Shown in pieces: positions 1 through 32,272 of a stretch of DNA of 37,317 nt (its first letter is position 1; each line of letters opens with the position of its first letter). The translations under genes were made by a program, and so were the position numbers. The notes under the pieces are model-generated. The model was not told the origin of the DNA, searched no databases, and saw only the letters and a list, made by a program, of their open reading frames with translations. This DNA comes from an uncultured bacterium (lineage in GTDB: Bacteria; Hydrogenedentota; Hydrogenedentia; Hydrogenedentales; JAEUWI01). The stretch is from contig CAXBPH010000036.1 in assembly GCA_963977445.1 (NCBI GenBank), positions 1 to 37,317 of the forward strand, in the 5' to 3' direction.

Positions 1-60
1 CTTCACCCTCGCCTTCACCCTCGCCTTCACCCTCGCCTTCACCCTCGCCTTCACCCTCGC
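1..60 (-). repeat. 5 x 12-bp tandem repeat (CTTCACCCTCGC on +) encoding a Glu-Gly (EGEG) linker
   Basis: Five exact copies read directly, in frame with the giant ORF; probably continues beyond the edge. Confidence 0.95.
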
Positions 61-11572: not shown

Positions 11573-11655
11573 CCCTGGACCTTTCCGTGATACGATTTCC
11601 CGCTGCAGCAATGCCTTGTCACGCGCCGCCGGTATCCAGGCGGCAACCCGCGCGA

Positions 11656-13626: not shown

Positions 13627-14616
13627 ATGAGCCCGATTGACGACCTAAAAAAATACGTTGATGAAATCACGGGCACCTCCCCCGTTATACAGCCTGTGGC
13701 GAAGAGCGCCCTGGCCACGCTTCCGTTGTACCTCACCAGCCAGTTCGACATCCGGCAACTGTATCTCTTTGGCGAACCCCTCCTGATAGCCCTGATCGAT
13801 GCCCACACCAAGCCGGACCTGGCGAAGCTCGCCCGGCAACGCGAATCCATAGAGGAAAAACTGGGCGCATCCGTTGTGCTCGTTATTCCTCAGCTCAAGT
13901 CTTACGAGCGCAAGCGCCTTATCCAGAAGCAGATTCCCTTCATTGTGCCGGGGCGGCAAATGTATCTGCCCATGTTGTTGACGGATCTGCGCGAGTCCTT
14001 TCCTGCCCGCGTAGATGCGACGGCGACGACCATGAGTTGGGTGGCACAGGTCATCGTGTTAAGGCACCTCATTTTTCACGATGTGATAGAACGGCCACTC
14101 TCGCATATTGCCACCATGCTCGGATATACCCCCATGGCGATATCCCAAGCCGTGGACGCGCTGGTCGCACTGCAACTGTGCGAACGGGTTCGGCTGGGGC
14201 GTGAGAAAAGAATTTATTTTCATTCAGCGCCGGATAAGCTCTGGCGCATGGCCCGGCCTTACCTGCGCGCACCGGTAAAAAAGTCGGTGCTTGCATGCAA
14301 ACTGGGCAATCGACTGGAACAGGCGCTGCGGGCAGGCCTGCCCGCGCTTGCGGACCTGACGGATATAGCATCGACCGAAAAACTTACCATTGCGCTGAGC
14401 GAATCGGAATTCCGCACGGCTCTGGAAGAAGGAGCAATTGAAATCTGTCCTTTGGAAGAAGACGCCTTGGCCGTAGTGCAGGTCTGGGCTTATACGCCCA
14501 AGGTACTTACCATCGGCCGGGCGGTCGACCCATTGTCACTCTATCTCTGTTTCCAGGATGATCAGGATGAACGGGTACAAACGGCCTTGGAGCAACTCTT
14601 GGAGTTAGTAGAATGA
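13627..14616 (+). CDS. wHTH (MarR-like/AbiEi-like) protein, putative antitoxin of a type IV-like TA pair
   Basis: ATG at 13627 (329 aa). Motifs RKRLIQKQIPFIVPGRQMYLP, HTH LSHIATMLGYTPMAISQAVDAL, C-terminal VDPLSLYL...DERVQ. ATGA overlap with the nucleotidyltransferase gene. Confidence 0.75.
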   Translation: MSPIDDLKKYVDEITGTSPVIQPVAKSALATLPLYLTSQFDIRQLYLFGEPLLIALIDAHTKPDLAKLARQRESIEEKLGASVVLVIPQLKSYERKRLIQKQIPFIVPGRQMYLPMLLTDLRESFPARVDATATTMSWVAQVIVLRHLIFHDVIERPLSHIATMLGYTPMAISQAVDALVALQLCERVRLGREKRIYFHSAPDKLWRMARPYLRAPVKKSVLACKLGNRLEQALRAGLPALADLTDIASTEKLTIALSESEFRTALEEGAIEICPLEEDALAVVQVWAYTPKVLTIGRAVDPLSLYLCFQDDQDERVQTALEQLLELVE

Positions 14617-15386
14617 TCAACGGTCTGGAACGTTTCCGTGATCACTTCAGCGGGTACGTGGAGCACTTCGTACTGATCGGTGGCGTGGCGGCCATGCAGT
14701 GGCTGGATGACGCGGACCTGAGTCCACGGGCTACGAAAGACTTCGATCTGGTATTGCTTGTCGAACGCCTCAACGATCAATTTCTCAATCACTTTTGGGA
14801 TTTCGTCAAGGCCGGCGCATACGACAATCTGAATAAGAGCACGGGGGAGAGGGTGTACTATCGCTTCACGGCACCCCTTGCTGATTATCCATCGATGCTT
14901 GAGATATTCTCTCGCGCGCCCGAGGCCCTCCAACTTTGGGACGACCCAAAAATAGTTCCGATACCCGCAAATGAAGACGCATCGAGCCTGTCCGCGATCC
15001 TCATGGACGAGGACTACTATGGCGTCGTACGAGACAATAGGCGAGAACACGAGGGATTGCCGTTATTGTCACCCCAAGGGCTTATCCTGCTCAAGGCCAG
15101 GGCATTCCTTGACCTCAGCAGCCGGCGAGCGAACGGTGCGCAGGTGGATGAGAAACAAATTAAGAAGCACCGCAACGATGTGTTCAAGCTTGCGTTGCTC
15201 CTGACGGCCGATCAACGGATGCTGATACCTAGCTCAGTTCATGCAGACTTACAGGCGTTTCTGGACACCTTTCCCGAGGCAGCGCCAGCGTGGGGGAGTA
15301 TTCGCCAGGCGTCCGGTTTGCGTGGAAACCAGATGAATCCCGCAACCGTTCTGCGAGTTCTCGCCGATGAGTTTCAGGGGGCCTGA
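14613..15386 (+). CDS. Pol-beta-fold nucleotidyltransferase (AbiEii-like putative toxin)
   Basis: LIGGVA...RATKDFD (GG...DxD motif), LILLKARA, KHRNDV; translationally coupled to the upstream gene. Confidence 0.8.
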   Translation: MINGLERFRDHFSGYVEHFVLIGGVAAMQWLDDADLSPRATKDFDLVLLVERLNDQFLNHFWDFVKAGAYDNLNKSTGERVYYRFTAPLADYPSMLEIFSRAPEALQLWDDPKIVPIPANEDASSLSAILMDEDYYGVVRDNRREHEGLPLLSPQGLILLKARAFLDLSSRRANGAQVDEKQIKKHRNDVFKLALLLTADQRMLIPSSVHADLQAFLDTFPEAAPAWGSIRQASGLRGNQMNPATVLRVLADEFQGA

Positions 15387-15409: not shown

Positions 15410-15429
15410 AACTTCGGACGTCCGAAGTT
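15410..15429. repeat. Palindrome copy 1, AACTTCGGACGTCCGAAGTT
   Basis: Perfect 20-bp palindrome, 23 bp after the toxin stop. Confidence 0.95.
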
Positions 15430-15624: not shown

Positions 15625-15650
15625 GAAAACTTCGGACGTCCGAAGTTTTC
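15625..15650. repeat. Palindrome copy 2, GAAAACTTCGGACGTCCGAAGTTTTC
   Basis: Perfect 26-bp palindrome. Confidence 0.95.
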
Positions 15651-17536: not shown

Positions 17537-18382
17537 ATGTCACGTTCCACCCCGAAGCCCCGACCTCCGGAAACTCACCCTGCCACAGCAACTTCAACGC
17601 TGCCGCCGCTCCTGAAATGGCTGGGCGGTAAGCGCTGGCTCGTCCCCGAACTTGTCGCCCTCTATGCGGGCCACCGACATCGCCGCCTCGTCGAGCCCTT
17701 CTGCGGCGGCTTGGCCGTCGCCTTGGGGCTTTGCCCCGGCGAAGCCCTGTTGAACGACGCAAACCCGCACCTCGTCAACTTCTACACGTGGGTTCAGCGC
17801 GGCCTTGAAATGAAACTCGACCTAGCCAACGACGCAGCGACCTACTACTGCCATCGTGATCGTTTCAACCAACTTATCGCCGAAGGCGACGTGCGCTCGT
17901 GCGAGGCGGCGTCCCTGTTCTACTACCTCAATCGCACCGGTTTCAACGGCCTTTGTCGCTTTAATCGTAAGGGCACTTTCAACGTGCCCTTTGGTCGCTA
18001 TCACGGTATCCGTTATGCAAGCTCCTTTGAAACCCATCGCCGCGCGTTCGCGCCCTGGTGTTTCTCATCCAATGACTTTGGATTCCTGACCCTTAAGCCG
18101 GATGATTTCATTTATGCTGACCCGCCATACGATGCCGCCTTCACCCAATACAGCGCCGACGGATTTTCGTGGGACGATCAGGTGCGTCTCGCCCAATGGC
18201 TCGCGCGCCATCCCGGCCCGGTGGTGCTGTCCAATAACGACACAGATCGCGTGCGCTCCCTCTATCAGCATCTTGGCTTCCGTATCGTGTTGCTTCATGC
18301 CCCGCGACGGGTCAGCGCCAACGGCGACCGGACACCTGCCCGAGAATTGCTGGCGTTGAGAAATCTCGATGGCCGCGAGTGA
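17537..18382 (+). CDS. Orphan Dam-family (D12 class) N6-adenine DNA methyltransferase
   Basis: PLLKWLGGK, VEPFCGG (motif I), FYYLNRTGFNGLCRFN, YADPPY (motif IV); no adjacent endonuclease. Confidence 0.92.
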   Translation: MSRSTPKPRPPETHPATATSTLPPLLKWLGGKRWLVPELVALYAGHRHRRLVEPFCGGLAVALGLCPGEALLNDANPHLVNFYTWVQRGLEMKLDLANDAATYYCHRDRFNQLIAEGDVRSCEAASLFYYLNRTGFNGLCRFNRKGTFNVPFGRYHGIRYASSFETHRRAFAPWCFSSNDFGFLTLKPDDFIYADPPYDAAFTQYSADGFSWDDQVRLAQWLARHPGPVVLSNNDTDRVRSLYQHLGFRIVLLHAPRRVSANGDRTPARELLALRNLDGRE

Positions 18383-18401: not shown

Positions 18402-18422
18402 GCTTCGGACCTCGGAAGTTTT
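18402..18422. repeat. Degenerate palindrome copy, GCTTCGGACCTCGGAAGTTTT
   Basis: 15/18 match to the core, between the convergent methylase and AbiEii 3' ends. Confidence 0.75.
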
Positions 18423-18447: not shown

Positions 18448-19326
18448 TCACGTTAACGAGCGAGGACCGTCGCTTAAGTTTTCAAGGAACTCCCGAACGG
18501 TTCTTACAATTTCCGGCAGGTCTGGTGGCGCAGGTTGTCGTCGTTGGCGCTTGACAAACCCGGCCCATTGAAGGCGCTTCGACTCATTATTTGCGAACTC
18601 GTCCGTGAGGGCTAAAGGCGTTGACTCTGGAAGCGGTGTTTGCCGGCGGATAAAGGTGCTCCTGATCGCTTCACACAAGCTATTTTCATTCAAGGGGAAC
18701 GTCTGGCTCAACATCCAGATATCGAAGTAGTCCTTCATACGACTGTTGGCCATGCCGAGTAGAACCATGGCGTGGAATTTCTCCGCGATAACTGTTTCCG
18801 GTGAGTATGTAGCGATTATGGGGCCCCGTTCGGCCAACAGTGCTGGGAACTCTGCTTGCCTGGGCTCGGGGACAATGATGTCGCCAAAGCCCACATCCAC
18901 TTGAAGCCGGATTGGCATTACACCGAGATAGACCGGTACGACGACGCGCACGCCGTCATAGACCGAATCCTCCCGGATGGCGGAAGCAGCGACTTTTGTA
19001 CCATCAAATTCGAGACCATCGTCCTCCATCGTGACGGTACAAACGCTCCCAATCACTTCGGCAAGATGCTTCGGGTCGGGATTGCCGAAGCCCAAGAGAT
19101 CAAGGTCCATGGTTGTGCGTTTGTCATCGAGCCGCCATGCGACGTAGAGCATTGCCCCTTTCAGGACGAACTGATTTCGGTGTGGGCTCGTAGCCAGGCG
19201 GGCCAGGAATCGCTCCACCGCGTAGCGGAGAACAATAGCTTGAAAGTCCTCGCCCGTTGCCTTCGCCAGATTCAGGAGCCGTGCCCGAACCGAGGCGCTC
19301 ATGTTCTTACGTGAGGGATCTCTCAT
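18448..19326 (-). CDS. abiEii: AbiEii/AbiGii-family nucleotidyltransferase toxin (292 aa)
   Basis: True start MRDPSRKNMSASVRARLLN at the ATGA overlap with abiEi. Motifs FVLKGAML, RTTMDLDLLG, ETVIAEKFHAM, NSRMKDYFDI. Confidence 0.9.
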   Translation of the reverse strand: MRDPSRKNMSASVRARLLNLAKATGEDFQAIVLRYAVERFLARLATSPHRNQFVLKGAMLYVAWRLDDKRTTMDLDLLGFGNPDPKHLAEVIGSVCTVTMEDDGLEFDGTKVAASAIREDSVYDGVRVVVPVYLGVMPIRLQVDVGFGDIIVPEPRQAEFPALLAERGPIIATYSPETVIAEKFHAMVLLGMANSRMKDYFDIWMLSQTFPLNENSLCEAIRSTFIRRQTPLPESTPLALTDEFANNESKRLQWAGFVKRQRRQPAPPDLPEIVRTVREFLENLSDGPRSLT

Positions 19327-19928
19327 TCGACCAGCATTTCCAGGTAGGGTTGGATGATGCCCTGCACACGGCAGACGCTCGCCGCCGCCCAGAGTTCGTC
19401 CATGGTGAAACGTTTCGCGCGCCAGCCTTCGCGGAGCGCCTCGATGGCGACATCCAGGCCGATCTTGTTTCGATACTTGAAGCAGTCCGCAATCGTTCTG
19501 GCCGGGGTGTAGATGTGTACCGCCACGCCCTCGATCACGTGCTCCTCCATGCCATGCTCGAAATGGGGACCCGTGCAGTAGAGAAAACGAACACCCCCCT
19601 CGCTTGGTGGCATCTTTCGGTCTCGCCGCATCATCCAGGTTTCGTGGGGCATCTGCGTGCCGATGCCATGAAATACGAGCGCCGAGATGACACAAATCAC
19701 GCCGCCGGGATAGCGGCGGGTGGCCTCTACAAAAGTGTGGTTCACGCTCAGCTCTCCATCGGGCAGTCCATAGAGTCCCCGTCCGGGCTGGACAAGCTGT
19801 CCGCTCCGAACCATGCGCTGGAGCGTGGATCTCGGATCCCGCGCATCGCGGATGTCCCGCGCGCGAAAGACGGATTGACGCCGTGCGGTTCTCAGTATCT
19901 TGTCGGCAATGTGCTCCATAGAGGGCAT
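19323..19928 (-). CDS. abiEi: AbiEi-family type IV TA antitoxin / transcriptional regulator
   Basis: LQRMVRSGQLVQPGRGLY, ISALVFHGIGTQMP, YTPARTIADCFKYRNKIGLDVAIEALR. Start uncertain (19919, 19928 or 19937). Confidence 0.9.
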   Translation of the reverse strand: MPSMEHIADKILRTARRQSVFRARDIRDARDPRSTLQRMVRSGQLVQPGRGLYGLPDGELSVNHTFVEATRRYPGGVICVISALVFHGIGTQMPHETWMMRRDRKMPPSEGGVRFLYCTGPHFEHGMEEHVIEGVAVHIYTPARTIADCFKYRNKIGLDVAIEALREGWRAKRFTMDELWAAASVCRVQGIIQPYLEMLVE

Positions 19929-19961
19929 ACTCTCCAAAGAATAAAGTTATTACTATTCTCC

Positions 19962-19991
19962 AATATGAGCCAACTCGATGGGAAATGTCAA
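19962..19991 (-). promoter_or_regulatory. sigma70 promoter of the abiEi-abiEii operon
   Basis: Minus strand TTGACA-N18-CATATT. Confidence 0.55.
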
Positions 19992-20012
19992 GGCCGGGAT
20001 TTGCCATGACAG

Positions 20013-20032
20013 AACTTCGGACGTCCGAAGTT
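20013..20032. repeat. Palindrome copy 3, AACTTCGGACGTCCGAAGTT
   Basis: Perfect 20-bp palindrome between the abiE promoter and the esterase stop. Confidence 0.95.
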
Positions 20033-21033: not shown

Positions 21034-21166
21034 ATGCCCTCCTATGCACCCGTCTGTGACAGCTACGGACGTTGTAGCCTTGATTATGGACGGCATGATT
21101 CGCGGTATCAAGATCGATTTCCGACATAGTCATTCCCTATATCGCGCGCCAGGCGTGCCGTCCCGG

Positions 21167-21184
21167 ACTTCGGACGTCCGAAGT
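21167..21184. repeat. Palindrome copy 4, ACTTCGGACGTCCGAAGT
   Basis: Perfect 18-bp palindrome upstream of the esterase. Confidence 0.95.
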
Positions 21185-21262
21185 TTTGGACGATACCCCT
21201 CGACAAGAAAAGTACCGTGTGCGATATTCTGGGCCTGCTAACAACCCTTCTGAGGTACCTCC

Positions 21263-21469
21263 ATGAACCCAACTCCAGCACAACTCGCCTACATCGCTAC
21301 TATGCTTTTCCAGCTTGACTTGGGTCTCGCCGAGGGCTTGCGGCTGGCCCGGGCCCGGTCGGCGATCGATAGTCTCTGGATGCTACAACCTGGTGAAGCT
21401 TTCCGCCTGATGCATGCTCTGGAACAGGAGAAGCGCCGTCGGAGTTATCCACAGCTTCACCTGAACTGA
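21263..21469 (+). CDS. Small hypothetical protein (68 aa), possibly nucleic-acid binding
   Basis: GAGGT RBS; PTPAQLAYIATML...EAFRLMHAL resembles the short helical T-x-x-Q-x-x-Y-I motif of phage/plasmid proteins. Confidence 0.6.
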   Translation: MNPTPAQLAYIATMLFQLDLGLAEGLRLARARSAIDSLWMLQPGEAFRLMHALEQEKRRRSYPQLHLN

Positions 21470-21495
21470 CGAACCCCGCAAAGGTCCCAGATCGA

Positions 21496-22365
21496 CCGGG
21501 CTTTTAGCCCGGCAGTGTCTATGGCGCGCGCGGACGGTGAAGAGATCACCGTCCGCCACGCGTGGTACACCCCACGCGACCCCTCCTCGGTGCGGGCCTT
21601 CGGCCCGGCCTTGTTGCCGCTCGCGTCTCGCGATTCCCGACCCTTGGTCAGGACATCGCTCGATCGCTCGCACAACCGATCACTTCAAGCCGCTGGCTTG
21701 GCGTGGTCTGTCAGTGCCCCGCAGCCCCGCCCCGAATAAGACCAAGGTCGCACGCTTCGCGTGCGTAGTCTATATGGCTCGCCAGCTCGCGATTCCCGAC
21801 CGTTGGCCAGGATATCGCTCGCCCGCTCTCCTCGCCTCCAGCCCCGGAACTCCGCGCGCGCCCCTCCCTCCGTTCCGGCACCTCCGGCATGTACCCCGCC
21901 GCTTCCACCACCATACCCGCCCAGTCCTCGCCCCACCGGCTGCGCGAACGCGCCGCCGCCTTTTCTTCGGACGCACGCTTTGCGTGCGCCTGGTCTATGG
22001 GTCGAACCCGGCTCGGATTTCCGCCTTGCGGAACTTCCTCATCCGGGTTCTCACCGAGCTCTCGGCATTCCCGACCCTTCGCCCTGGTCAGGACATGCTG
22101 TCGACTCGGCCCCGACCCCGAGGCCTCGCTTATTCCGCGCCCGGAAGTTGCTCAGCCTCTTTCACTGGCAGCCACGCCCTGGGAGCGAGGCGCGCGCCAG
22201 CGTCGCTGTCACGCCCCTCGCCCGTTCCCAGGCCGCCCCCATGCCGGGCTCCTGAACGGAGCCTCCGCGCTGAACGCGCGGTTGTCGCCTCGCGATTGGG
22301 CGCGAGGGCTCCCGGCCCTGAACGGGCCTGCGCTCGCTGGGCTGCTCGCGCCTGCGCTGAACGCT
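21496..22365 (-). other. Array of repeated hairpins (structured ssDNA or ncRNA) upstream of the relaxase-like gene
   Basis: Three units of hairpin + GTCTAT(AT)GG + conserved 36-39-nt hairpin, and three different stems sharing a TGAAC loop (see findings). Confidence 0.65.
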
Positions 22366-22534
22366 CCGGCCCCTTTCGCCCTACGTCTTCTTCGCGCTCA
22401 AACTGGCGGTCCACAGCACACTTAAGCGACCGCCCAGTCAGGGGTTAGACACAGCCCAACAACCATCTTCCAATCCCCTCTAAAGGTGGTGTACACTTGG
22501 GTCGAGGCTTGGGTGAGGGTCAGGCTGTGGGCTC

Positions 22535-23179
22535 ATGCTGACCATCTCTTCACGAGACGACGAAATCCTCGATTCACTGACCTTGCGTGTGCGCTTGCTC
22601 ACGCTGGACCAGGTCGCACGCTGCTGGTGGTCCGACGTAAAGTCGGCCAGGCAGTTGGCCCTTAACCGTCTGCGCGAACTCGAATTGGCGGACAAAGTCC
22701 ACCTCTTGGACTTGCCCGCTCACCCCGAACTCTCGCTCACGGAACCCGAGGCGATCTGGAAGCCGAAGGCCCCTGTCCCAAACTTTCACCAGCTCAGCTA
22801 CCGCCTTTCCAGCCGGTGGAAGCAGCCTCCAATCCTCCACCTGGGGGTCATCGCTTCCCGCGCTTCCGGGCGTCACTACGGTGGCTGGGGCGGGCGCAAA
22901 CCCCGCCCGACAGAGCGCACCCACGACCTCCATATGGGCACGGTGTTCCTTCTGAAGCGGGCCCGGGATCCGGAATCGGTAATTCACTGGATGTCCGAGG
23001 AGAAGGTCCGCGAGTGGCAGCGGCAGCGTCGGAGCGACGGCACCCATCACGTGCCCGATGCCATCGTGAAGCGGCCCAGACGAACCGCCATCGAGTTTGG
23101 GGGCTCCTATCCCGCAGACAAGCTGTCCACCTTCCATGACTACTGCGTGACGCAGGGGTGGCCTTACGAAATATGGTAG
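22535..23179 (+). CDS. Replication-relaxation (Replic_Relax / MOBC-like, PD-(D/E)xK fold) putative relaxase
   Basis: N-terminal wHTH (RDDEILDSL..VRLLTLDQVAR..ALNRLREL), then THDL, VPDAIV, AIEFGGSY..KL; first gene of an operon with a coupling ATPase. Confidence 0.7.
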   Translation: MLTISSRDDEILDSLTLRVRLLTLDQVARCWWSDVKSARQLALNRLRELELADKVHLLDLPAHPELSLTEPEAIWKPKAPVPNFHQLSYRLSSRWKQPPILHLGVIASRASGRHYGGWGGRKPRPTERTHDLHMGTVFLLKRARDPESVIHWMSEEKVREWQRQRRSDGTHHVPDAIVKRPRRTAIEFGGSYPADKLSTFHDYCVTQGWPYEIW

Positions 23180-23877
23180 AGCGGGACGATACAATCGATC
23201 TGAGGGCCCTGATCCTCGAACATATTGGGCGCTATCGCATCTCCTTCCTACCCGTGATGGAGCGTGTCTTCGCTGGGCTCGGCGACGTGAAGGGAACGGT
23301 CCAGAAACTCCAGAAAGCTGGTCTAATCACCGCCCTGGGACGGACGGCGGGCTACGGAAGCATCTTCGGCGGCTACACCGCATACCAGACCACGGCGAAG
23401 GGCGCCAAGCAGGCCGGCTTCACGGTGAAACGCGCAAAGAAGCTCGAAGAGAACGCACTGGAGATTTCCTTTCGGATCCTCTGGCTCTGCTGCATGGGTA
23501 AGCCACGCTACCGTCGTCTGGAGGAAAGGCACCTCGTGCAATTGTTCGGCCATCCCCTCAAGTCGAAAAATGGCTACTACTGCATGGAGATGAAAGGAGA
23601 ACGCCGGGTCTACCGCATCCGCCTGATCGGTCAGGAATCGGACGACGAATACGCGCTCCGTGAAACCCGAAAGGATCTCGTCGAATGCGGCGAGTTACCC
23701 ATACTGAAGGAATTCTGTCAGCACGCTCGCTACGGAAACCTGCTGGTGGTCAGCAAGCCGGAGCGGCGGCGGCGGCTCGAAGAACGGGTGAACAAGCAGG
23801 GTCTGAAGCAATTAGGACACGTTCGGGTGGCGCAGGTACCCGACCTCGCCGAGATAGGAGGAGCCTTCCGTGATTGA
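23173..23877 (+). CDS. wHTH hypothetical protein, possible relaxosome accessory factor (234 aa)
   Basis: ATG overlaps the upstream stop and the 3' end overlaps the next gene; ILEHIGRYR...VQKLQKAGLI...YQTTAKG wHTH pattern. Confidence 0.75.
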   Translation: MVERDDTIDLRALILEHIGRYRISFLPVMERVFAGLGDVKGTVQKLQKAGLITALGRTAGYGSIFGGYTAYQTTAKGAKQAGFTVKRAKKLEENALEISFRILWLCCMGKPRYRRLEERHLVQLFGHPLKSKNGYYCMEMKGERRVYRIRLIGQESDDEYALRETRKDLVECGELPILKEFCQHARYGNLLVVSKPERRRRLEERVNKQGLKQLGHVRVAQVPDLAEIGGAFRD

Positions 23878-26845
23878 TGATCTTTTTAACGTTGGTTCCT
23901 ATGCCGCCAAGGCGTTGCGGCGCAGCGTCCTTCGGTATACCCGTCGGCCCGTCGAGTATAATTTTAAACGCCTTCCCGAGCCCGAACACTACCGCGACAT
24001 GGAACTTGCCTTTCGCGAAGACTACTTCGATCCGCCGCCCTTTTCCTTCAAGCACATGTTCCCCTACTTTAAATACGCGTCCCTTTTGCTGCTTTTTTTG
24101 ATGGGGTACAACGCCTTCGGCCTGAGTATTGTCCTTGCAATATCTAGTCTCGTGGTTCTGGCGCTGCCAAATATTTTTATTGGGCGCAGCTTCATGCTCT
24201 TGTTCCGCTCTCAAGTCCAATTATCGCTTGCCATTTTCTTTGTTATCCTGGTCGGCCTGGCCTACATCGCCACCGATTCCATGGAATATAGCGCGCTGGC
24301 GGTATTCGCAGTTGGCGCCCCGATGCTCTTTGTCCTGAAACGCGTCACCTACGATTTCATGGCCTTTTGCGTCCTGTGGCTTCACACGCACCCTTGCCTA
24401 ACGAACAAGGAACGCCAGGATAGTCGTGAAACACTGTATCCGGCGTTCAGCCTACTTTTGCCTGAGATTGTCGTCGTCGTCCTCGCACTGGGCCCAGCAT
24501 ACTCGTCTTTCCTGGCGCTAACCGCTGTGTACGCGATCCTCCTCGCCAGCTTGATCTTTGGGCCACTGCAGAAAATTTTTCGCGAGCAAACACAGATAAC
24601 GTGGTACAGGTTCGCCAGCACGACGACCGAGCTTCTTGTAGAGTATTTTACCTACGGCAGAAGGTTCTCTCGCCCCTTGCCCGGTGTCTTCGTTTACCCA
24701 CGAGGATATCACGTGCGGCGCCGGTACGCTGTCCTGCTGCTCATCCTGACGCTATTCACCTTTTCCGCCGGTACCAGCTTCTTCTTTGCATGGGACACGC
24801 CAGGTTTTCGTGGCCAGTATGTCGCCATGTTCAGTGAGACCATCTATGCGGATCCGAATGCGTGGAACGGGATGAAAGAAGAAATGCCCCTTCTCGACTG
24901 GTCCAAGGCACCAGATCAAGGTGAACGCGAAAGGATGCAGCAGCGTCTGGATAATCTGCGCGAGGCGCGCGATGACGCAACATCAGACGACAGAATCGCG
25001 ATTGGCATCGAAGTGGAGAAGTTGAGCAGACAAGTGCCTGCCGGTGGGCCCGAACTCGACCATATCGCCAATGCTTGGTACGGGCGCGCCACCACGGCGT
25101 GGATGAAGATGGCCTTGCGCAATGTGCGAACACACCCTGTTACCGTTTCTGCAAGCTTTCTCTTGGCCATCGCTCATGCCCTCCTGCTTCCCGCGCTCTT
25201 CTTCCTTGCCACCCTGCAACATCAATTACTCGCGATTGGGTTACTACGAGAAAAGCTTGTAGCCCGCGTCGCCACGGAAACTACGTGCAGCCCATGGGAG
25301 TGGTTCGTGGAGCGACTCAGGAATTCGCGCCACGCGGCACCCGACCCGCTCAACGCCGATTCCGCCATCCGCGAAGCAGATCACCTCTTTCTTGGTCTGG
25401 AGGCCGAAAACGGATTTCCCGTTCTGTTACATCGTGATATCGTCGCGGACCACGTCTACATAACCGGGGGTACCGGCACGGGCAAAACTTCGCTCGGCAT
25501 TCTCTCGCTGTTGGTCCAACTGATCCGCGCCGGCTCGACGGACCCCGACGAATCCGAAGGCGGCACGCCGCCCATCGTCATTATTGATCTCAAGGGTGAC
25601 TACGCCCTGCTGCACACAGTGCGCGAGGAGGTGCGAAAGAAAGCAGAACAGGAAGGACGGAATTTCGAGGACTGCTTCCGCCTCTTCACCTCCGAGAAGG
25701 GTATGCCCACCCACTACTTCAACCCGCTCGGGGACATGAGCCACCCGGATCGTTACGTGGCGGATCTCGCCAATCTGCTGCTGGATGCGCTGGAACTCAA
25801 CCACGGCCCGGGCTATGGCCGCTCGTTTTACAGCCGCAAGAATTACATGCTCCTGCACGAAGTCCTGAAGGCCAATGACCCGGCGACTATCGATGAGTTA
25901 TGCAAGCGCATCTCCAAGAATACCCTACGCAACAAAGATGATCGGCATCAGGCATTTGAACTCGTGGCCACCCTTTACGGGCTCACGGAGTTCACGCAAC
26001 TCATGCCGCCCCCTAACATCCCCGAATCCGATACCATTTCCATGCGCACGGTGATCGAGGAACGGCAGGTCGTATACTTCTGGCTTCCCACGGTGGAAAG
26101 CAGCATCGTTGCGCGTGAGATCGCCAATCTTGCCCTTTTCTCGTACTTCTCGGCCATGCGGGCCCGGGCGAAGACGCGTGTGCCGCTGCGCCAGGCCTAT
26201 CTGGTCGTGGATGAGTTTCAGAAACTTGCCGGCGACCGTTTTAGCGTCATCCTGGAGCAGGCTCGAGGATTCGGGCTTTCGGCGATCCTGTCAAACCAGT
26301 CTATCTCTGACCTGAAAACCCCCTCTTTCGACTTGCGTTCCACCGTGTTTCAGAACACGCGCCTCAAGCTCTATTTTTCCTTTGCCGACTGCCGCGAAAT
26401 GGCCGATTTCGCCAAACGTTCCGGCGATGAGTTGGCCTATATGCGTTCCGGCATTTATAACCTTGCCGGGGACGAGCAACCCGACGCGCCACTATTTGAC
26501 CGGTGGTCGCACGCCATCAAGCCTCGCGTTACCACCAACGATATGCTCAGCGTTACGGATCACCCACTCCAGGCCTACATGGACGTCCGTTCCGGCAGCG
26601 GCTACACCCAGTTTGGCGGCGCTACGATTCCATTGCAGATGTTTCATCCGGTTCGATGGTCGGACTTTCAGGAGCGACGCGATACCTTGTCCTGGCCTAC
26701 GTTGGAAGAGTTGGGGATCACAAGATCGGTATGCGCCGCCGTATCGCCAGAGGAGGTGGATGAACGGGCCGTTGCGCAGATCGCGCGGCTCGACGAGCGC
26801 ATCCAGGCGTTTGATGACGAGCATCCGCAGTTTCGTTTTTCATAA
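23870..26845 (+). CDS. Polytopic membrane VirD4/TraD-like type IV coupling ATPase (991 aa)
   Basis: AGGAG RBS and GTG start; roughly 8-9 hydrophobic segments; Walker A GGTGTGKT, IIDLKGD, Walker B LVVDEFQ, EQARGFGLSAILSNQSISDL. Confidence 0.88.
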   Translation: MIDDLFNVGSYAAKALRRSVLRYTRRPVEYNFKRLPEPEHYRDMELAFREDYFDPPPFSFKHMFPYFKYASLLLLFLMGYNAFGLSIVLAISSLVVLALPNIFIGRSFMLLFRSQVQLSLAIFFVILVGLAYIATDSMEYSALAVFAVGAPMLFVLKRVTYDFMAFCVLWLHTHPCLTNKERQDSRETLYPAFSLLLPEIVVVVLALGPAYSSFLALTAVYAILLASLIFGPLQKIFREQTQITWYRFASTTTELLVEYFTYGRRFSRPLPGVFVYPRGYHVRRRYAVLLLILTLFTFSAGTSFFFAWDTPGFRGQYVAMFSETIYADPNAWNGMKEEMPLLDWSKAPDQGERERMQQRLDNLREARDDATSDDRIAIGIEVEKLSRQVPAGGPELDHIANAWYGRATTAWMKMALRNVRTHPVTVSASFLLAIAHALLLPALFFLATLQHQLLAIGLLREKLVARVATETTCSPWEWFVERLRNSRHAAPDPLNADSAIREADHLFLGLEAENGFPVLLHRDIVADHVYITGGTGTGKTSLGILSLLVQLIRAGSTDPDESEGGTPPIVIIDLKGDYALLHTVREEVRKKAEQEGRNFEDCFRLFTSEKGMPTHYFNPLGDMSHPDRYVADLANLLLDALELNHGPGYGRSFYSRKNYMLLHEVLKANDPATIDELCKRISKNTLRNKDDRHQAFELVATLYGLTEFTQLMPPPNIPESDTISMRTVIEERQVVYFWLPTVESSIVAREIANLALFSYFSAMRARAKTRVPLRQAYLVVDEFQKLAGDRFSVILEQARGFGLSAILSNQSISDLKTPSFDLRSTVFQNTRLKLYFSFADCREMADFAKRSGDELAYMRSGIYNLAGDEQPDAPLFDRWSHAIKPRVTTNDMLSVTDHPLQAYMDVRSGSGYTQFGGATIPLQMFHPVRWSDFQERRDTLSWPTLEELGITRSVCAAVSPEEVDERAVAQIARLDERIQAFDDEHPQFRFS

Positions 26846-28401: not shown

Positions 28402-28419
28402 ACTTCGGACGTCCGAAGT
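28402..28419. repeat. Palindrome copy 5, ACTTCGGACGTCCGAAGT
   Basis: Perfect 18-bp palindrome between the transfer cluster and the DUF932-like gene. Confidence 0.95.
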
Positions 28420-28653
28420 TTCCTGTGTCCAATCGAAAATTCGGATCAGCGTGCATAGCCTACACTCTGCCCCCTCTTCCCCATGTTGAATAAATGTCAC
28501 GCCTACGGATGACTTCCGCATAACGTTTCCAAATAGATGCTCTTTGATAACCCAACACGAGTAGACGGGAAACCCCCGTCTCCCAATCACTATGGGAGAC
28601 CGGTGGTGCAATCACGGTTTTTCATTGGGTTTTTCAACAACAAGGAGACAGCT

Positions 28654-29679
28654 ATGCAAACGTTAACACGGGCTCATGACGAGCTCTACCGGCGTACGCC
28701 AGACGAACAGTTCCCCAACTTGGACGCATTGGTGCAGCATTGTCAGACGCAAAAGGAAGCGTCGCAAGAGCAGTGGCACGCACCCCATACCATTCGTCCG
28801 GAATCGACGGGCGGAGAACTTACTCTTCGCCTGGATCAGGAAGGCGTATACGGCCTGAATGATTGGAGTTTCACCCAGGTATGCGGACTGGCCAAGGTCA
28901 GCAAGGATACGGTGAACAAACTTCGGCCCCAAACGGCCGATGCCGTGCTCGCGGAGACCCTCCCGAGCGGCACGCGGCCCATCCAGACGCTGATTCAGGG
29001 CGATCAGGTTCGTTCTATTCATGGTGCCAGCTATACGCGACTCTACAACGCGGATCTGCTCGGCGTCGTGAACGAATTCGCCTCCCATTTCAGCGCGCCT
29101 CAGGAGGCTGTTGGCGGTGCCAGTGGGCTCTATTGCGGGGAGCAGGACATGTTTTGCTTCCTCATCGACCCCACGGGCTGGGCGGAAATCGACGGTGAGG
29201 CCTTCGCCCCCGGATTCTTCTTGTGGAATTCGGAGGTGGGCAAACGCTCTATCGGTATCCAGACCTTTTGGTTTCAGGCCATCTGCCGGAATCACATCGT
29301 TTGGGATGCGGTCGAAGTCGTTGAATTCACCCGCAATCATACGGCACGGGTTTACGAATCTCTCGATGGCATACGGCGGATCATAGAGAATTTGGTCTAC
29401 AAGGTCGACGCCCGGCGGGATGGATTCATCCACGTCATTGAGAAGGCTATGCGGAAACGCTTGGGTTCTGATGCCGAGGAGGTGCTTAAGGCCCTACACA
29501 AGCACGGTATCCCCCGCAACCTGGCCCAGGAGGCCATGAAAATGGCCAAGGCCCAAGGAGAGTTTACCCTCTTCGCCCTCATTGATGCCCTTACCCGGAT
29601 GGCTGGAAAAATTCCAAACGCCGGGGACCGCATCGAACTGGACACCAAGGCGGCAGGCCTTTTGGCCCTCGCTGCGTAA
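28654..29679 (+). CDS. DUF932-like phage/plasmid protein (341 aa)
   Basis: ATG at 28654 with AAGGAG RBS; RSIHGASYTRLYNADL, GFFLWNSEVGKRS, FQAICRNHIVW, FTRNH. Confidence 0.78.
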   Translation: MQTLTRAHDELYRRTPDEQFPNLDALVQHCQTQKEASQEQWHAPHTIRPESTGGELTLRLDQEGVYGLNDWSFTQVCGLAKVSKDTVNKLRPQTADAVLAETLPSGTRPIQTLIQGDQVRSIHGASYTRLYNADLLGVVNEFASHFSAPQEAVGGASGLYCGEQDMFCFLIDPTGWAEIDGEAFAPGFFLWNSEVGKRSIGIQTFWFQAICRNHIVWDAVEVVEFTRNHTARVYESLDGIRRIIENLVYKVDARRDGFIHVIEKAMRKRLGSDAEEVLKALHKHGIPRNLAQEAMKMAKAQGEFTLFALIDALTRMAGKIPNAGDRIELDTKAAGLLALAA

Positions 29680-30100: not shown

Positions 30101-30142
30101 GATTGAATACTTCGCACGGGCAGGCCGACCGGTCGGATGTCC

Positions 30143-32272
30143 CTATTCCCGCTGGAATCCAGCAGGGCGGCCAATTCCAAATGCGATATCCTTAACCGGC
30201 GCTGGCCGGTCCTCATTCTCTACATAGCGCCACAGTTCGATTCCCTGGGAGCTACTTCCCGCTGCCATGAAAAGGGCATTGGCTGCGGGCGCCAAAACTT
30301 CGAATCGAATCTCCTCGTAGGGCACCTCCACAATATCCCGCACCATGACGGTTCCCGCCTCCGTTCCGTCACAGCGCCAGAGCTCTTCGCCGTGAATTCC
30401 GTCGTCCGCGAGGAAATAGAGCGCTCCCTGGAACACGACGAGGTTGCGTGGCGTGCTGGATGCCGCGCCCTTGGCAATATCCCGGAGCAATCCCGCCGGC
30501 CGACCGGGTCTGGCAACCCACAATTCGAGGCCGGTTCCATCGCTTTGTGCACAGAAAAAAAGCGTGCTTTCCAGCGCAGTGAGGTTCTGTGGGTTTGCCG
30601 CATCCAGGCTGACGATTACGGTACCCTCGTCTGAGCCATCGGTCTGCCACAGGCGGAAGCCGTTGGCCCCGTCTTCTGCTGTGAAATACAGGAGCGATTC
30701 GGCGGGCGTCAATTCGTCCGGGGAACTGCCCGCACGGCCCGGAAAAACGTCTTTCACGAGCCGTGTTCCAGTTCCCTTACCGTCCGACACCCACAGCTCC
30801 GCGCCGTGGGCAATGTCGTTGGCCACGAAATAGAGGAGATTCCCGGCCGGCGTCAGTTGTTGGGGCGATGATGAGGGGTTGACGTTGCCGTCGGTGTAGA
30901 TATCCGCCAGGAGCCGCGCCTGCCCGTCCCCATCGGCGCACCAAAGCTCGCGCCCATGCACCGGATCGGTGGCCGCGAAAATCACGAGATTGCCAATGGC
31001 AACGGTGTAATACGGCGAAGAACTTTTTTCACCGGGGTAGATGTCGCGGACCAGTGTTGCGTGTTCCCCGCTGGCGTCGGCCATGTAGATCTCTTCACCC
31101 AAACCATCACCGAGCGCGCTAAAAAAGACACCATGACCTGGAAGTGCACATAGCGCATAAGGGTCCGACCCTTCCACCCCAGGGCGAATGTCACCGACCG
31201 CGCTGGCGGTTTCGTACGGGGGGCCGACGGACCACAGTTCTTTACCAATATCCAGACCTTTCGCCGCAAAGAAAACCCGGTAGCCTAGAACGACGAAAGC
31301 GCTGGGACTCCCGCTGTCCCGACCCGGCCATAGGTCCGTGACCATTCGTGTGCCAGGGCCGGTTCCGTCGGTAATCCAAAGTTCCCGGCCGTGCACGCCA
31401 TCGTCTGCAACAAATACGATCTGCGGGGCCCTATCGGGAAAGCTGATGACCGTAAATAGAGTTGGGGCGCTCTCTAAGGGACCGGCGGCGATATCGTGTA
31501 CCATAAATGTGTGCTCTGCCGTCCCCCCGGACACAAACAACTCCTCGCCATTCATATTGTCGGAGCTGCGAAAGATCAATCGATTGGCGTCGATTTCGGT
31601 TATATCTCTTGCGTGCGTTGTGAGCTGATCTATTTCCGTAACCATTCGCCCTTCCGCGTCACATCGAGCGAGGATTGGACCACGAATTGGATGCTGCCCG
31701 GCGAAGTAGAAAAACCCGCGCTGGATCACACCGGCATAGTCGGCACCGATTGGGCCCTGCCATTCCGTTGTCATCGGAAGTGGCTGCGTTCCTTCCTCAG
31801 TGCCATCGGTCTGCCAGAATGCGGGCGTGCCGCTCACTACCCGAATGAACGCTTTCCCGCTATCCCAGACCCCGCATACGCCATCAAATCCTTCCTTGAT
31901 GTCCCCGTTAAACTGCTTGACGCGCCGGGTGCCTTCCGCCGTACCATCCGTTTTCCAGAGTTCGCTGCCCCCACCCGCAGGATCGACCCGGAACAGCAAG
32001 AGTTCGCCAAAATTGGAAAGCTTGCTGATTTCGGTACTTTCCGGTCCTGGGGTGATATCCGCGACCAACGCCACAGTCCCTTGAGCGTCTGATCGCCAGA
32101 TCTCCCGGCCATGAATTCCATCATCCGCGGTGAAATACACAAAATCCCGTAAGACATGAAGGTCCTGAGGATTGGATGAAGGCGGCGAGTAACTTTCCTC
32201 AGCAAAAGCCCCTGGTGCAAAGACCAACGTAGCGGCTCCAAGTAGATACGGAAACAAGCAACAATACCTCAT
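30143..32272 (-). CDS. Secreted ELWxxDGT-repeat beta-propeller protein (709 aa)
   Basis: Signal peptide; many ELWKTDGT / ELWITDGT / ELWRCDGT repeats; ATGA overlap with the kinase stop. Confidence 0.93.
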   Translation of the reverse strand: MRYCCLFPYLLGAATLVFAPGAFAEESYSPPSSNPQDLHVLRDFVYFTADDGIHGREIWRSDAQGTVALVADITPGPESTEISKLSNFGELLLFRVDPAGGGSELWKTDGTAEGTRRVKQFNGDIKEGFDGVCGVWDSGKAFIRVVSGTPAFWQTDGTEEGTQPLPMTTEWQGPIGADYAGVIQRGFFYFAGQHPIRGPILARCDAEGRMVTEIDQLTTHARDITEIDANRLIFRSSDNMNGEELFVSGGTAEHTFMVHDIAAGPLESAPTLFTVISFPDRAPQIVFVADDGVHGRELWITDGTGPGTRMVTDLWPGRDSGSPSAFVVLGYRVFFAAKGLDIGKELWSVGPPYETASAVGDIRPGVEGSDPYALCALPGHGVFFSALGDGLGEEIYMADASGEHATLVRDIYPGEKSSSPYYTVAIGNLVIFAATDPVHGRELWCADGDGQARLLADIYTDGNVNPSSSPQQLTPAGNLLYFVANDIAHGAELWVSDGKGTGTRLVKDVFPGRAGSSPDELTPAESLLYFTAEDGANGFRLWQTDGSDEGTVIVSLDAANPQNLTALESTLFFCAQSDGTGLELWVARPGRPAGLLRDIAKGAASSTPRNLVVFQGALYFLADDGIHGEELWRCDGTEAGTVMVRDIVEVPYEEIRFEVLAPAANALFMAAGSSSQGIELWRYVENEDRPAPVKDIAFGIGRPAGFQRE

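Follow-up and report, generated by a model that had tools for sequence, protein, structure and literature searches.

Relaxases of the MOB_C class, defined by the domain PF13814, are found in compact integrative and mobilizable elements that carry a VirD4 coupling protein (PMC5357655, in the sections that deal with this class). The MOB_C relaxase TraX has a DEE motif and an essential tyrosine (PMC6736028) and binds five direct repeats located 70–120 bp from nic (PMC12857230); reviews of the class place the binding site far from the cut and state that no covalent DNA intermediate has been observed. In the leading regions of F, ColIb-P9 and pESBL, folded single-stranded DNA near the transfer origin is proposed to serve priming or early transcription, and each of these Frpo and ssi sequences is described as one large stem-loop in which the -35 and -10 boxes are re-formed (PMC11541004, PMC12672017). 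Here we describe an array of hairpins in a 37 317-nt contig of an uncultured Hydrogenedentota bacterium (assembly GCA_963977445.1, contig CAXBPH010000036.1, forward strand), which was analysed over its full length and is called the window below; it is one contig of a 7.1-Mb, 94%-complete genome (G000). The array, ∼0.9 kb with 15–20 short G+C-rich hairpins, lies between a 68-aa open reading frame (ORF), P68, and an operon for a 214-aa winged-helix protein (P214), a second protein (P239) and a coupling protein. A first-pass annotation had described three repeated units at 21496–22099, which turn out to be the left two thirds of the array, as a selected single-stranded structure beside a relaxase gene.

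The hairpin array is a real, conserved, structured element present in several phyla, and it has no described counterpart in Rfam or in the open literature that we searched. Its neighbours, a coupling protein of the VirD4/TraD type and a relaxase candidate that is small and restriction-endonuclease-like, give it a place resembling that of MOB_C transfer origins (pAD1 TraX, CloDF13 MobC), with which it is compared here by description, and its repeats could by analogy be a binding site apart from the cut, as the five direct repeats are for TraX. In contrast to those origins, the array spans 0.6–1 kb and has 15–20 hairpins with co-varying stems and fixed loops, and the adjacent protein family is only weakly similar to PF13814 (2 of 14 members). 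Like Frpo and ssi, the array is proposed to act as folded single-stranded DNA beside a transfer origin, yet it is a string of short G+C-rich hairpins, and no -10-like hexamer (TATAAT with at most one mismatch, a pattern that covers sigma-70-type boxes and may not be the host's consensus) occurs on either strand of the gap between P68 and P214 (21470–22534). The first-pass annotation had listed a single-stranded promoter along with priming signals (ssi/sso) and non-coding RNA (ncRNA); due to this lack, a promoter of the Frpo type is disfavoured.

A conserved hairpin array with co-varying stems

The array takes up the 1065-nt gap at 21470–22534, which has 68% G+C and a plus strand with a strong excess of C over G. 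Hairpin A is present at 21496–21512 (CCGGGC-TTTTA-GCCCGG), 21749–21765 (CGCACGC-TTC-GCGTGCG) and 21972–21988 (CGCACGC-TTT-GCGTGCG), and the motif GTCTAT(AT)GG starts at 21517, 21768 and 21993. Hairpin B is present at 21627–21662 and 21786–21821, two copies identical at 33 of 36 positions, and at 22061–22104, where the outer stem reads GCAT/ATGC and the loop is longer; TTC triloops (GAA on the minus strand) lie at 21593–21607 and 21749–21765. These features are as the first-pass annotation had reported them, with the third hairpin B reaching 22104. A repeat finder recovers the same families; the copies of hairpin B are direct repeats, and the distance from one to the next is 159 and then 275 nt. 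When up to three mismatches are allowed, the 36-nt pattern of hairpin B has two matches in comparison with none in 100 shuffles, and its 10-nt core ATTCCCGACC occurs exactly at 21633, 21792 and 22067 only. A covariance model of hairpin B finds three matches in the window (E ≤ 1.6e-11), and these are the only ones in the whole 7.1-Mb genome. A weak match of this model at 30121–30167 on the minus strand (E 0.027) does not resemble hairpin B and was rejected. The GTCTAT motif alone is not above chance, with six matches at up to one mismatch versus 4.8 expected, a number reached in 33 of 100 shuffles.

Folding of 21496–22099 is well beyond that of 20 dinucleotide shuffles, with z-scores of -6.7 (plus) and -5.6 (minus) under RNA parameters and -5.4 (plus) and -6.2 (minus) under DNA parameters, while a coding control region of equal length folds no better than its shuffles (0.0, 1.7, -0.5 and 0.4). 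The 1065-nt gap matches nothing but itself in its own genome, which shows that it is not a dispersed repeat such as a REP, a MITE or the end of an insertion sequence. The first-pass annotation had not recognised the family. Rfam 15 gives no match at the gathering score across the whole window, and at E ≤ 10 the region 21100–22600 has just three rows at chance level (RT-15 with 17.6 versus 82 bits, SorX with 13.3 versus 46.6 and ZFAT-AS1_3 with 13.2 versus 70). Keyword searches of the open-access literature, too small in scope to prove absence, returned no description of the array.

An alignment of 17 sequences of the array core shows a chain of local hairpins with compensatory changes in the stems and fixed unpaired parts. 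The stem around a 23-nt loop is CCGGAA/TTCCGG in the window, CAATC/GATTG in genome G103, CCAGGT/ACCTGG in locus L054 and CAGGC/GCCTG in locus L062, and a nested stem varies as GCAAGGG/CCCTTGC (L062), GCAAGGC/GCCTTGC (L091) and GCAATGA/TCATTGC (G103). The stem at 22133–22146 pairs alignment columns 480–483 with 491–494. Other stems are replaced outright between the window and G103, from GGCTCC/GGAGCC to GGGACGAC/GTCGTCCC and from CCGCGC/GCGCGG to CCGGTC/GACCGG. Among perfect stems of at least 5 bp in 25 regions, the same loops recur on different stems: TGAAC in 26 hairpins with 13 distinct stem ends, TGGG in 22 with 11, TTC in 21 with 15 and TGGAC in 17 with 13. Relatives also have a two-tier hairpin that is absent from the window genome (stem1-A-stem2-TGGG-stem2'-TG-stem1'), both tiers of which co-vary in at least eight distinct sequences around a retained 1 × 2 internal loop (A / TG).

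The hairpin-B family was aligned as a set of 46 sequences. Paired cells make up 89.3% in comparison with 73.0% in shuffles and 26–40% in controls with slid partners; changes on both sides are found in 84 cells versus 26.6 in shuffles, and none of 500 shuffles reached the covariation score. Part of the inner stem was fixed by the search pattern, and the two outer pairs, which no pattern fixed, are thus the fair test. These occur as GC in 19, CG in 16, AU in 3 and other combinations in 8 sequences for one pair, and as GC in 21, CG in 16, AU in 6 and others in 3 for the second. The compensatory change that had been noted in the outer stem of the third copy belongs to this wider trend of the family, in which the outer pairs exchange GC and CG freely. 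With stems that co-vary around constant loops, the array is a structure under selection, as first proposed. A blind scan for hairpins was too unspecific to add to this, with 12.1 hairpins per region in shuffles versus 9–19 in the real regions, and its counts of A.C (217) and G.T (182) are only weak evidence.

Strong matches to the gap exist in four of eight genomes of the same genus, and two of them, G002 and G004, are 86% identical to it over ∼865 nt. The first ∼100 nt of unit 1 are arranged in tandem three times in G002 and twice in G004. Copy numbers taken from the assemblies may be underestimates, since the array runs past the contig ends in G001, G002 and G006. A block of 171 nt with about seven hairpins, which matches 22243–22360 of the window, is found as three tandem copies in G004 and at least two in G002, and as a single truncated copy in the window; at loci L023 (G004) and L004 (G002) these repeats were read on the reverse strand. 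That 171 is a multiple of three and that a 303-aa frame is open at 21537–22448 on the plus strand might suggest a real gene with peptide repeats, the contrary case that the first-pass annotation had named. We give this next to no credence, however, because the internal gaps are all of 1 nt (five of five against G004, three of three against G002) and break the frame, and other periods of the 100-nt module are 98 and 101 nt. Besides, the product would be rich in Arg, Pro and Ala with no family match, and a G+C content of 68% leads one to expect the long open frames that are seen in several frames of both strands. The region is non-coding.

Outside the genus, the array core (∼21777–22370) is 60–73% identical by BLASTN to loci L054, L062, L091, L097, L110, L119, L121 and L122, and conservation of the array extends to about 22400. 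Carriers of the core are contigs labelled Hydrogenedentales, Eisenbacteria and Phycisphaerae plus unlabelled metagenome contigs, while the Planctomycetota loci have only hairpin-B clusters in common with it. In total, the relatives that we judged real comprise metagenome-assembled genomes labelled Eisenbacteria, Phycisphaerae, Gemmataceae and Pirellulaceae, the genus Tautonia, and about 20 metagenome contigs; at least one carrier is cultured (the Tautonia sociabilis record of L056). G103, which belongs to another family and has a P214 homologue with 34% identity, retains hairpin A and the hairpins further downstream, along with hairpin B in two copies. The conservation and covariation expected of homologous elements are thus both found, but the three units are not the natural module that they had been taken for. 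Distant relatives lack unit 1 and have two copies of hairpin B (one to three per locus among all relatives), and the limits of the BLASTN core indicate that units 2 and 3 are part of the old core, with unit 1 a recent duplication at the genus level.

The hairpin-B model with strict filters matches 3 of 151 sampled Planctomycetota genomes, so its occurrence there is sporadic. Scans with exact patterns returned 55 loci in the genome collection, most of which were judged by eye to be chance or coding matches, and 36 in metagenomes, several of which (L092/L115/L116/L118, L102/L109/L111 and L108/L113/L125) seemed from their sequence alone to be of the same kind and were dropped by eye from later counts. 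Matches at L040 and L081 were rejected after reading their context, as they are chance matches inside coding sequence similar to acyl-CoA synthetase; L092, L115, L116 and L118 are probably of the same kind, judging by their motif. Searches by pattern only therefore need a filter for the outer stem or the context.

Strand preference and the choice between DNA and RNA

The first-pass annotation had assigned the structure to the minus strand, where C.A mismatches of the plus strand become wobbles. This is correct for hairpin B. At one position the 46 sequences have C.A (35) or C-G (11) on the plus strand, and thus T.G or C-G on the minus strand. In total the minus strand has 568 Watson–Crick pairs, 47 G.T pairs and 57 mismatches, in comparison with 568, 7 and 97 on the plus strand, and its fold is a continuous helix with one variable bulged base that is 2–7 kcal/mol better. 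With the exception of the one fixed position, wobbles make up 1–2% of hairpin-B cells, and the helices are nearly all Watson–Crick (511 cells, versus 7 with G.T and 12 with A.C on the plus strand). Extrahelical bases give strand-specific recognition in integron attC sites, IS200/IS605 elements and REP hairpins, and hairpin B is similar to these in its conserved single bulged base and fixed non-Watson–Crick position within co-varying stems. It differs from REP and IS200/IS605 hairpins in having three copies, all at one locus. The only matches to attC cores (RYYYAAC ... GTTRRRY) are at 22444–22460, outside all copies of hairpins A and B, and the ORFs scanned include no integron integrase or HUH transposase.

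The minus-strand preference does not hold for the rest of the array. Among core pairs common to the consensus folds of both strands, the plus strand has 55 G.U and 52 A.C, and folds made with G.U forbidden give 44 and 47. Consensus energy is lower on the minus strand (-198.6 versus -159.2), yet shuffles of this G-rich strand show the same preference, and the folding z-scores of 21496–22099 show no clear difference between the strands. In DNA, a GNA triloop with a C:G closing pair is very stable; among 117 triloops on perfect stems, 34 are C-TNC-G on the plus strand, equivalent to C-GNA-G on the minus strand, and three are C-GNA-G on the plus strand. The two C-GAA-G triloops that had been pointed out on the minus strand (21593 and 21749) are present, but CAGC-GAA-GCTG is found on the plus strand in relatives and such triloops are therefore not specific to the minus strand. 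We infer that the minus strand would be the main folded strand.

The symmetry of G.T and A.C over the core (55 versus 52) and the equal z-scores of both strands are what would be predicted if the array worked as double-stranded DNA or extruded cruciforms, with palindromic sites (iterons, centromere-like sites or operators) that P214 and P239 would bind as winged-helix proteins and no single-stranded stage. Both proteins look like DNA binders (the AlphaFold model of P214 is confident, with a pLDDT of 92.6), and variation in copy number is typical of iterons. Sites read as a duplex would nevertheless be expected to conserve the sequence of their arms, yet GC-to-CG swaps are free, and the loops are constant although they are not special to a duplex reader. 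Bulges, the 1 × 2 internal loop and the fixed C.A/T.G position are conserved as well. On this evidence we consider the duplex explanation improbable.

Another explanation is a large structured ncRNA of 0.6–0.9 kb, either the 3' part of a P68 transcript or a leader of the P214 operon (plus strand), or an antisense RNA (minus strand), in which hairpins with constant loops would be sites that bind a protein or titrate it, or else a scaffold for the transfer machinery. Deep covariation, loops and internal-loop bases that are invariant across phyla, and a fixed orientation relative to P214 would all suit an RNA, as would the array nucleotides that are 60–73% identical in loci where P214 is only 33–38% identical. 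A promoter-like site upstream of P68 is followed by no terminator before the array. Hairpin B keeps its G.U-type wobble on the minus strand, some stems form U.A/U.G/C.G series on the plus strand, and the minus strand is rich in G with loops enriched in A, as is generally the case in many structured RNAs. CsrB and RsmZ RNAs also have many hairpins with one constant loop motif and a variable number of repeats. The array differs from these in its loops (TGAAC, TGGG and TNC rather than GGA) and in lacking a G.U excess, a promoter, a terminator and an Rfam match.

RNA helices in general tolerate wobble; in unbiased pair sets of the array G.U is no commoner than A.C, and hairpin-B wobbles stay at the 1–2% given above. 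No Rfam family reaches its gathering score, and the rows at E ≤ 10 are those of chance level. Neither strand of the gap holds a promoter or terminator match, so that no -10-like box or terminator frames the block, whereas G103 has a minus-strand terminator that abuts the array just outside it, and the number of modules differs between close relatives. The near absence of excess wobble, a gap in which neither promoter nor terminator signals were found, the fast change in copy number and the terminator in G103 together argue for DNA over RNA without proving it, and an RNA seems to us unlikely. Sequencing runs listed for the genome are five DNA runs (shares of 0.05–0.08) and no RNA run. In G103, the interval between the array and the P214 homologue (L034, ∼1870–2090) has, by eye, an extra minus-strand small ORF of about 45 hydrophobic residues, which ends in the terminator hairpin GGGGCTTAGAG...CTCTAAGCCCC and a T-run on the minus strand next to the array.

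A possible single-stranded region near a transfer origin

The array has a fixed place and orientation upstream of P214 (22535–23179, plus strand). A P214 homologue is located 450–1100 nt downstream on the same strand at 10 other loci (G004, G103, L054, L097, L099, L105, L110, L112, L114 and L122), a count that leaves out L107 as a duplicate of G103, with L121 and L124 holding a 29-aa fragment; in two Planctomycetota genomes the homologue is ∼4.7 kb downstream, also on the same strand. One P214 copy in Tautonia has its own upstream hairpin-B and TGGAC hairpins. Identity to the P214 of the window is 88% in G002 and 58% in G004. An alignment of 14 homologues has H130-D131, E155, P174-D175 and Y192 invariant and E187 nearly so, residues that by analogy would fit the DEE metal site and the essential tyrosine of TraX. 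P214 itself has no Pfam match even at E ≤ 10 and no Foldseek match to the Protein Data Bank (PDB) at E ≤ 0.001. We treat P214 as a candidate MOB_C-like relaxase (Replic_Relax, PD-(D/E)XK). The first-pass description of the array as lying beside a relaxase gene holds in that a relaxase-like gene and a type IV coupling protein (T4CP) gene adjoin, with the qualification that P214 is only weakly similar to MOB_C.

The other two genes of the operon follow directly on the plus strand. P239 (23158–23877) is a protein of unknown function conserved beside P214, with a homologue 62% identical in G004 and a weak match in L105; it has no similarity to P214 (E 0.5), and its best PDB sequence match (E 0.027) is unusable. 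The 991-aa ATPase at 23870–26845 is similar to TraD/VirD4 coupling proteins, with matches to TrwB_AAD_bind (E 3.2e-8, 33.3 bits versus a cut-off of 20.5), TraG-D_C (22.1 bits versus 22) and DUF87, and one to SXT_TraD (E 2.5e-15) that is under the curated cut-off.

Our best reading, to which we give about an even chance, is that the array is a cis region close to a transfer origin, acting as single-stranded DNA in a small integrated mobilisable element of MOB_C-like type. Unwinding for transfer or for rolling-circle copying would let the hairpins of the strand fold, and the constant parts would be read by P214, P239 and perhaps P68, by host priming enzymes, or by both. These parts would be the ATTCC/GGA-N-AT box of hairpin B, marked by a single bulged base and an unvarying wobble, together with the 23-nt loop and the loops TGAAC and TGGG. 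Since the stems need only pair, they could drift by compensatory change, while the repeats would supply several sites for binding or priming, the number of which could shift quickly by tandem duplication. The single-strand origins ssoA and ICEBs1 sso are strand-specific, heavily folded non-coding DNAs of a few hundred nucleotides that serve the transferred or displaced strand, and ssoA has CS-6 (TAGCGT/A) in its terminal loop. The array is much longer and modular, and CS-6 (TAGCG[TA]) is absent from both strands of the gap.

A number of points weigh against this reading. No nick site was found, and any transfer or priming by the array is conjectural. To our knowledge, co-varying hairpins with fixed loops are not present in such numbers in any other transfer origin described, which makes its likeness to known single-strand signals near origins an analogy. 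The signals for the strand conflict, as some helices form T.A/T.G/C.G series on the plus strand, and the triloop bias comes from only about three or four independent hairpin types. A promoter-like site lies upstream of P68 and no terminator separates it from the array, so transcription of the plus strand may occur in any case. The assignment of P214 as a relaxase rests on 2 of 14 homologues with weak matches to PF13814 (best E 0.0035), and VIA-align finds MarR-like winged-helix proteins only (best Z 9.9), the fold searches having aligned just the winged-helix half. The nearest P214 homologue at one locus from Gemmataceae has the opposite orientation. Not every member of the family requires the array, as G095 (P214 41% identical) has a P214 homologue and an 18-nt palindrome also found in the window but neither the array nor the 68-aa ORF. 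The 94%-complete genome has no match to the TrwC-type relaxase family (PF08751) or to VirB4 (PF03135), the two families searched among those of type IV secretion and transfer, and no helper machinery is therefore in view.

A different kind of transfer origin is suggested by the R388 substrate, described in the relevant part of PMC4176350 as the hairpin GCGCACC-GAAA-GGTGCGT followed by ATT and then GTCT|ATAG. Each unit of the array has on the plus strand a hairpin of 6–7 bp, a spacer of 2–4 nt and GTCTAT, and could thus be a MOB_F-type nick site (GTCT|AT) used by the TrwC-like relaxase of a helper, with the plus strand transferred. By eye, GTGCGTA and then GTCTATA in unit 2 agree with the R388 oligonucleotide at 14 of 18 positions with a 2-nt gap, and unit 3, which keeps the spacing of R388, has GTGCG, 4 nt and GTCTATGG. 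G001, G006 and L097 also carry GTCTAT after a hairpin. We find this explanation very improbable, however, because GTCTAT does not exceed its chance frequency, is missing from the distant arrays, and in G002 and G004 is altered to GTCTCT, GTCCAT, TTTCGCT or GTATAC although their P214 proteins remain 88% and 58% identical. The motif, which the first-pass annotation had counted as part of each unit, is thus not conserved even at 86% identity. A MOB_F nick site of the R388 type is expected to have a hairpin, ∼9 nt of invariant single strand, G-T-C/G-T up to the cut and then a purine. This purine, at position 26, is reported to be needed by TrwC, and the pyrimidine that follows the would-be cut in G002 and G004 would be unprocessable by it. 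Nor is there a TrwC-family gene (PF08751) in the genome.

Apart from the origin-proximal region that we favour, the array might represent structured nucleic acids, large and modular, of a categorically new class that accompanies modules for a MOB_C-like relaxase and a coupling protein in Hydrogenedentota, Planctomycetota and related phyla, which we regard as possible but rather doubtful. It could then be an ornate ncRNA of 0.6–1 kb that scaffolds or regulates the transfer machinery, or equally a programmed fold of the transferred strand with constant-loop hairpins read singly by proteins of the element. Neither form has a described counterpart. Hardly any work exists on the mobile elements of Planctomycetota, Hydrogenedentota and their neighbours, and of the relaxase classes MOB_C is the one understood least; the array offers a conserved cis region with clear recognition features, namely the bulge, the fixed wobble and the constant loops. 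If it acts as DNA, it would add to the known single-strand conjugation signals (ssi, Frpo, sso) one that occurs outside Proteobacteria and Firmicutes and is built quite differently, and if it acts as RNA it would be a new large structured RNA family. Under either reading, metagenomes can conveniently be screened for this element family with the hairpin-B model.

Array features and gene neighbourhood

Unit 1 (21496–21662) is composed of hairpin A1 (21496–21512), GTCTATGG (21517–21524) and B1 (21627–21662), with inner hairpins at 21530–21556 (11 bp, perfect), 21559–21578 and 21593–21607 (TTC triloop). Unit 2 (21749–21821), with hairpin A2 (21749–21765), GTCTATATGG (21768–21777) and B2 (21786–21821), opens the widely conserved core. 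It is followed by the 23-nt-loop hairpin (21844–21878), in which the co-varying 6-bp stem CCGGAA/TTCCGG encloses the conserved loop CTCCGCNCGCGCCCCTCCCTNCG, and by a C/A-rich linker (21894–21937) almost devoid of G on the plus strand with a conserved GCACCCGCC-like motif. Unit 3 (21972–22104) has hairpin A3 (21972–21988), GTCTATGGGT (21993–22002) and B3 (22061–22104), the latter within an extended stem at 22054–22109; its inner hairpin TTCC...GGAA (22015–22038) is enclosed by CCCGG/CCGGG (22007–22047). Further downstream are the hairpin TTCCG...CGGAA at 22133–22146, whose stem co-varies with T.G intermediates on the plus strand, and a nested stem at 22185–22221, GCGAGG...CCCCTCGC around a CAGC-loop-GCTG hairpin and then a conserved TCAC. 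The last part is a cluster of TGAAC pentaloops (22247–22375) with hairpins at 22247–22263, 22265–22281 and 22314–22328, a weaker one at 22354–22366, and a further hairpin at 22288–22307. This cluster is one partial copy of the 171-nt unit that is tandemly repeated in G004 and G002.

P68 (21263–21469, plus strand) ends 27 nt before the array and has homologues upstream of the array in G002, G004, L090, L097 and L117. It has no Pfam, NCBIfam or PHROG match, and its best PDB sequence match has an E-value of 0.55. Its structural look-alikes in the Atlas are small helical domains on phage and plasmid proteins of DNA metabolism (GemA-like, topoisomerase, ERF and Rad52-like clusters); all of these are below the bar for naming, and as a lead only they suggest from the predicted structure that P68 may bind DNA. 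Upstream of P68, the 18-nt palindrome ACTTCGGACGTCCGAAGT at 21167–21184 is followed by the promoter-like site at 21200–21228 (plus strand). Exact copies of the palindrome are also found at 15411–15428, 15629–15646, 20014–20031 and 28402–28419, with a degenerate one at 18402–18419, and all of them are intergenic. Exact copies occur in the distant relatives G095, G103, L090 and L097 as well, mostly followed by TTT. The palindrome may be an operator or a bidirectional terminator, and its copies perhaps mark the extent of the mobile element.

To the right of the ATPase gene are genes for a lipoprotein-like protein and a weakly DUF932-like protein. The latter, a 380-aa protein similar to phrog_1362 (28537–29679, plus strand), has homologues ∼1 kb upstream of the hairpin-B clusters at the Tautonia-type loci L056 (1495–1980) and L103 (1008–1478), and is apparently a member of this element family. 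On its left side the array is preceded by a hydrolase gene, an AbiEii-family gene and a gene for an orphan D12 adenine methyltransferase. ORFs on this side at 17537–18382 (plus), 18448–20007 (minus) and 14613–15386 (plus) include the orphan D12 N6-adenine methyltransferase and AbiEii proteins; the AbiEii-family protein has 519 aa with a long N-terminal extension, and there is a second, weakly AbiEii-like ORF. Should the minus strand be the transferred one, this cargo of defence or anti-defence genes would make up the leading region. At 2–11611 (minus strand), a frame open for at least 3870 aa runs off the contig end, and downstream of the element are genes for an ELWxxDGT-repeat protein (30143–32272), a Ser/Thr kinase and an FHA-sigma54 activator; the large frame and these genes are probably the chromosomal flanks.

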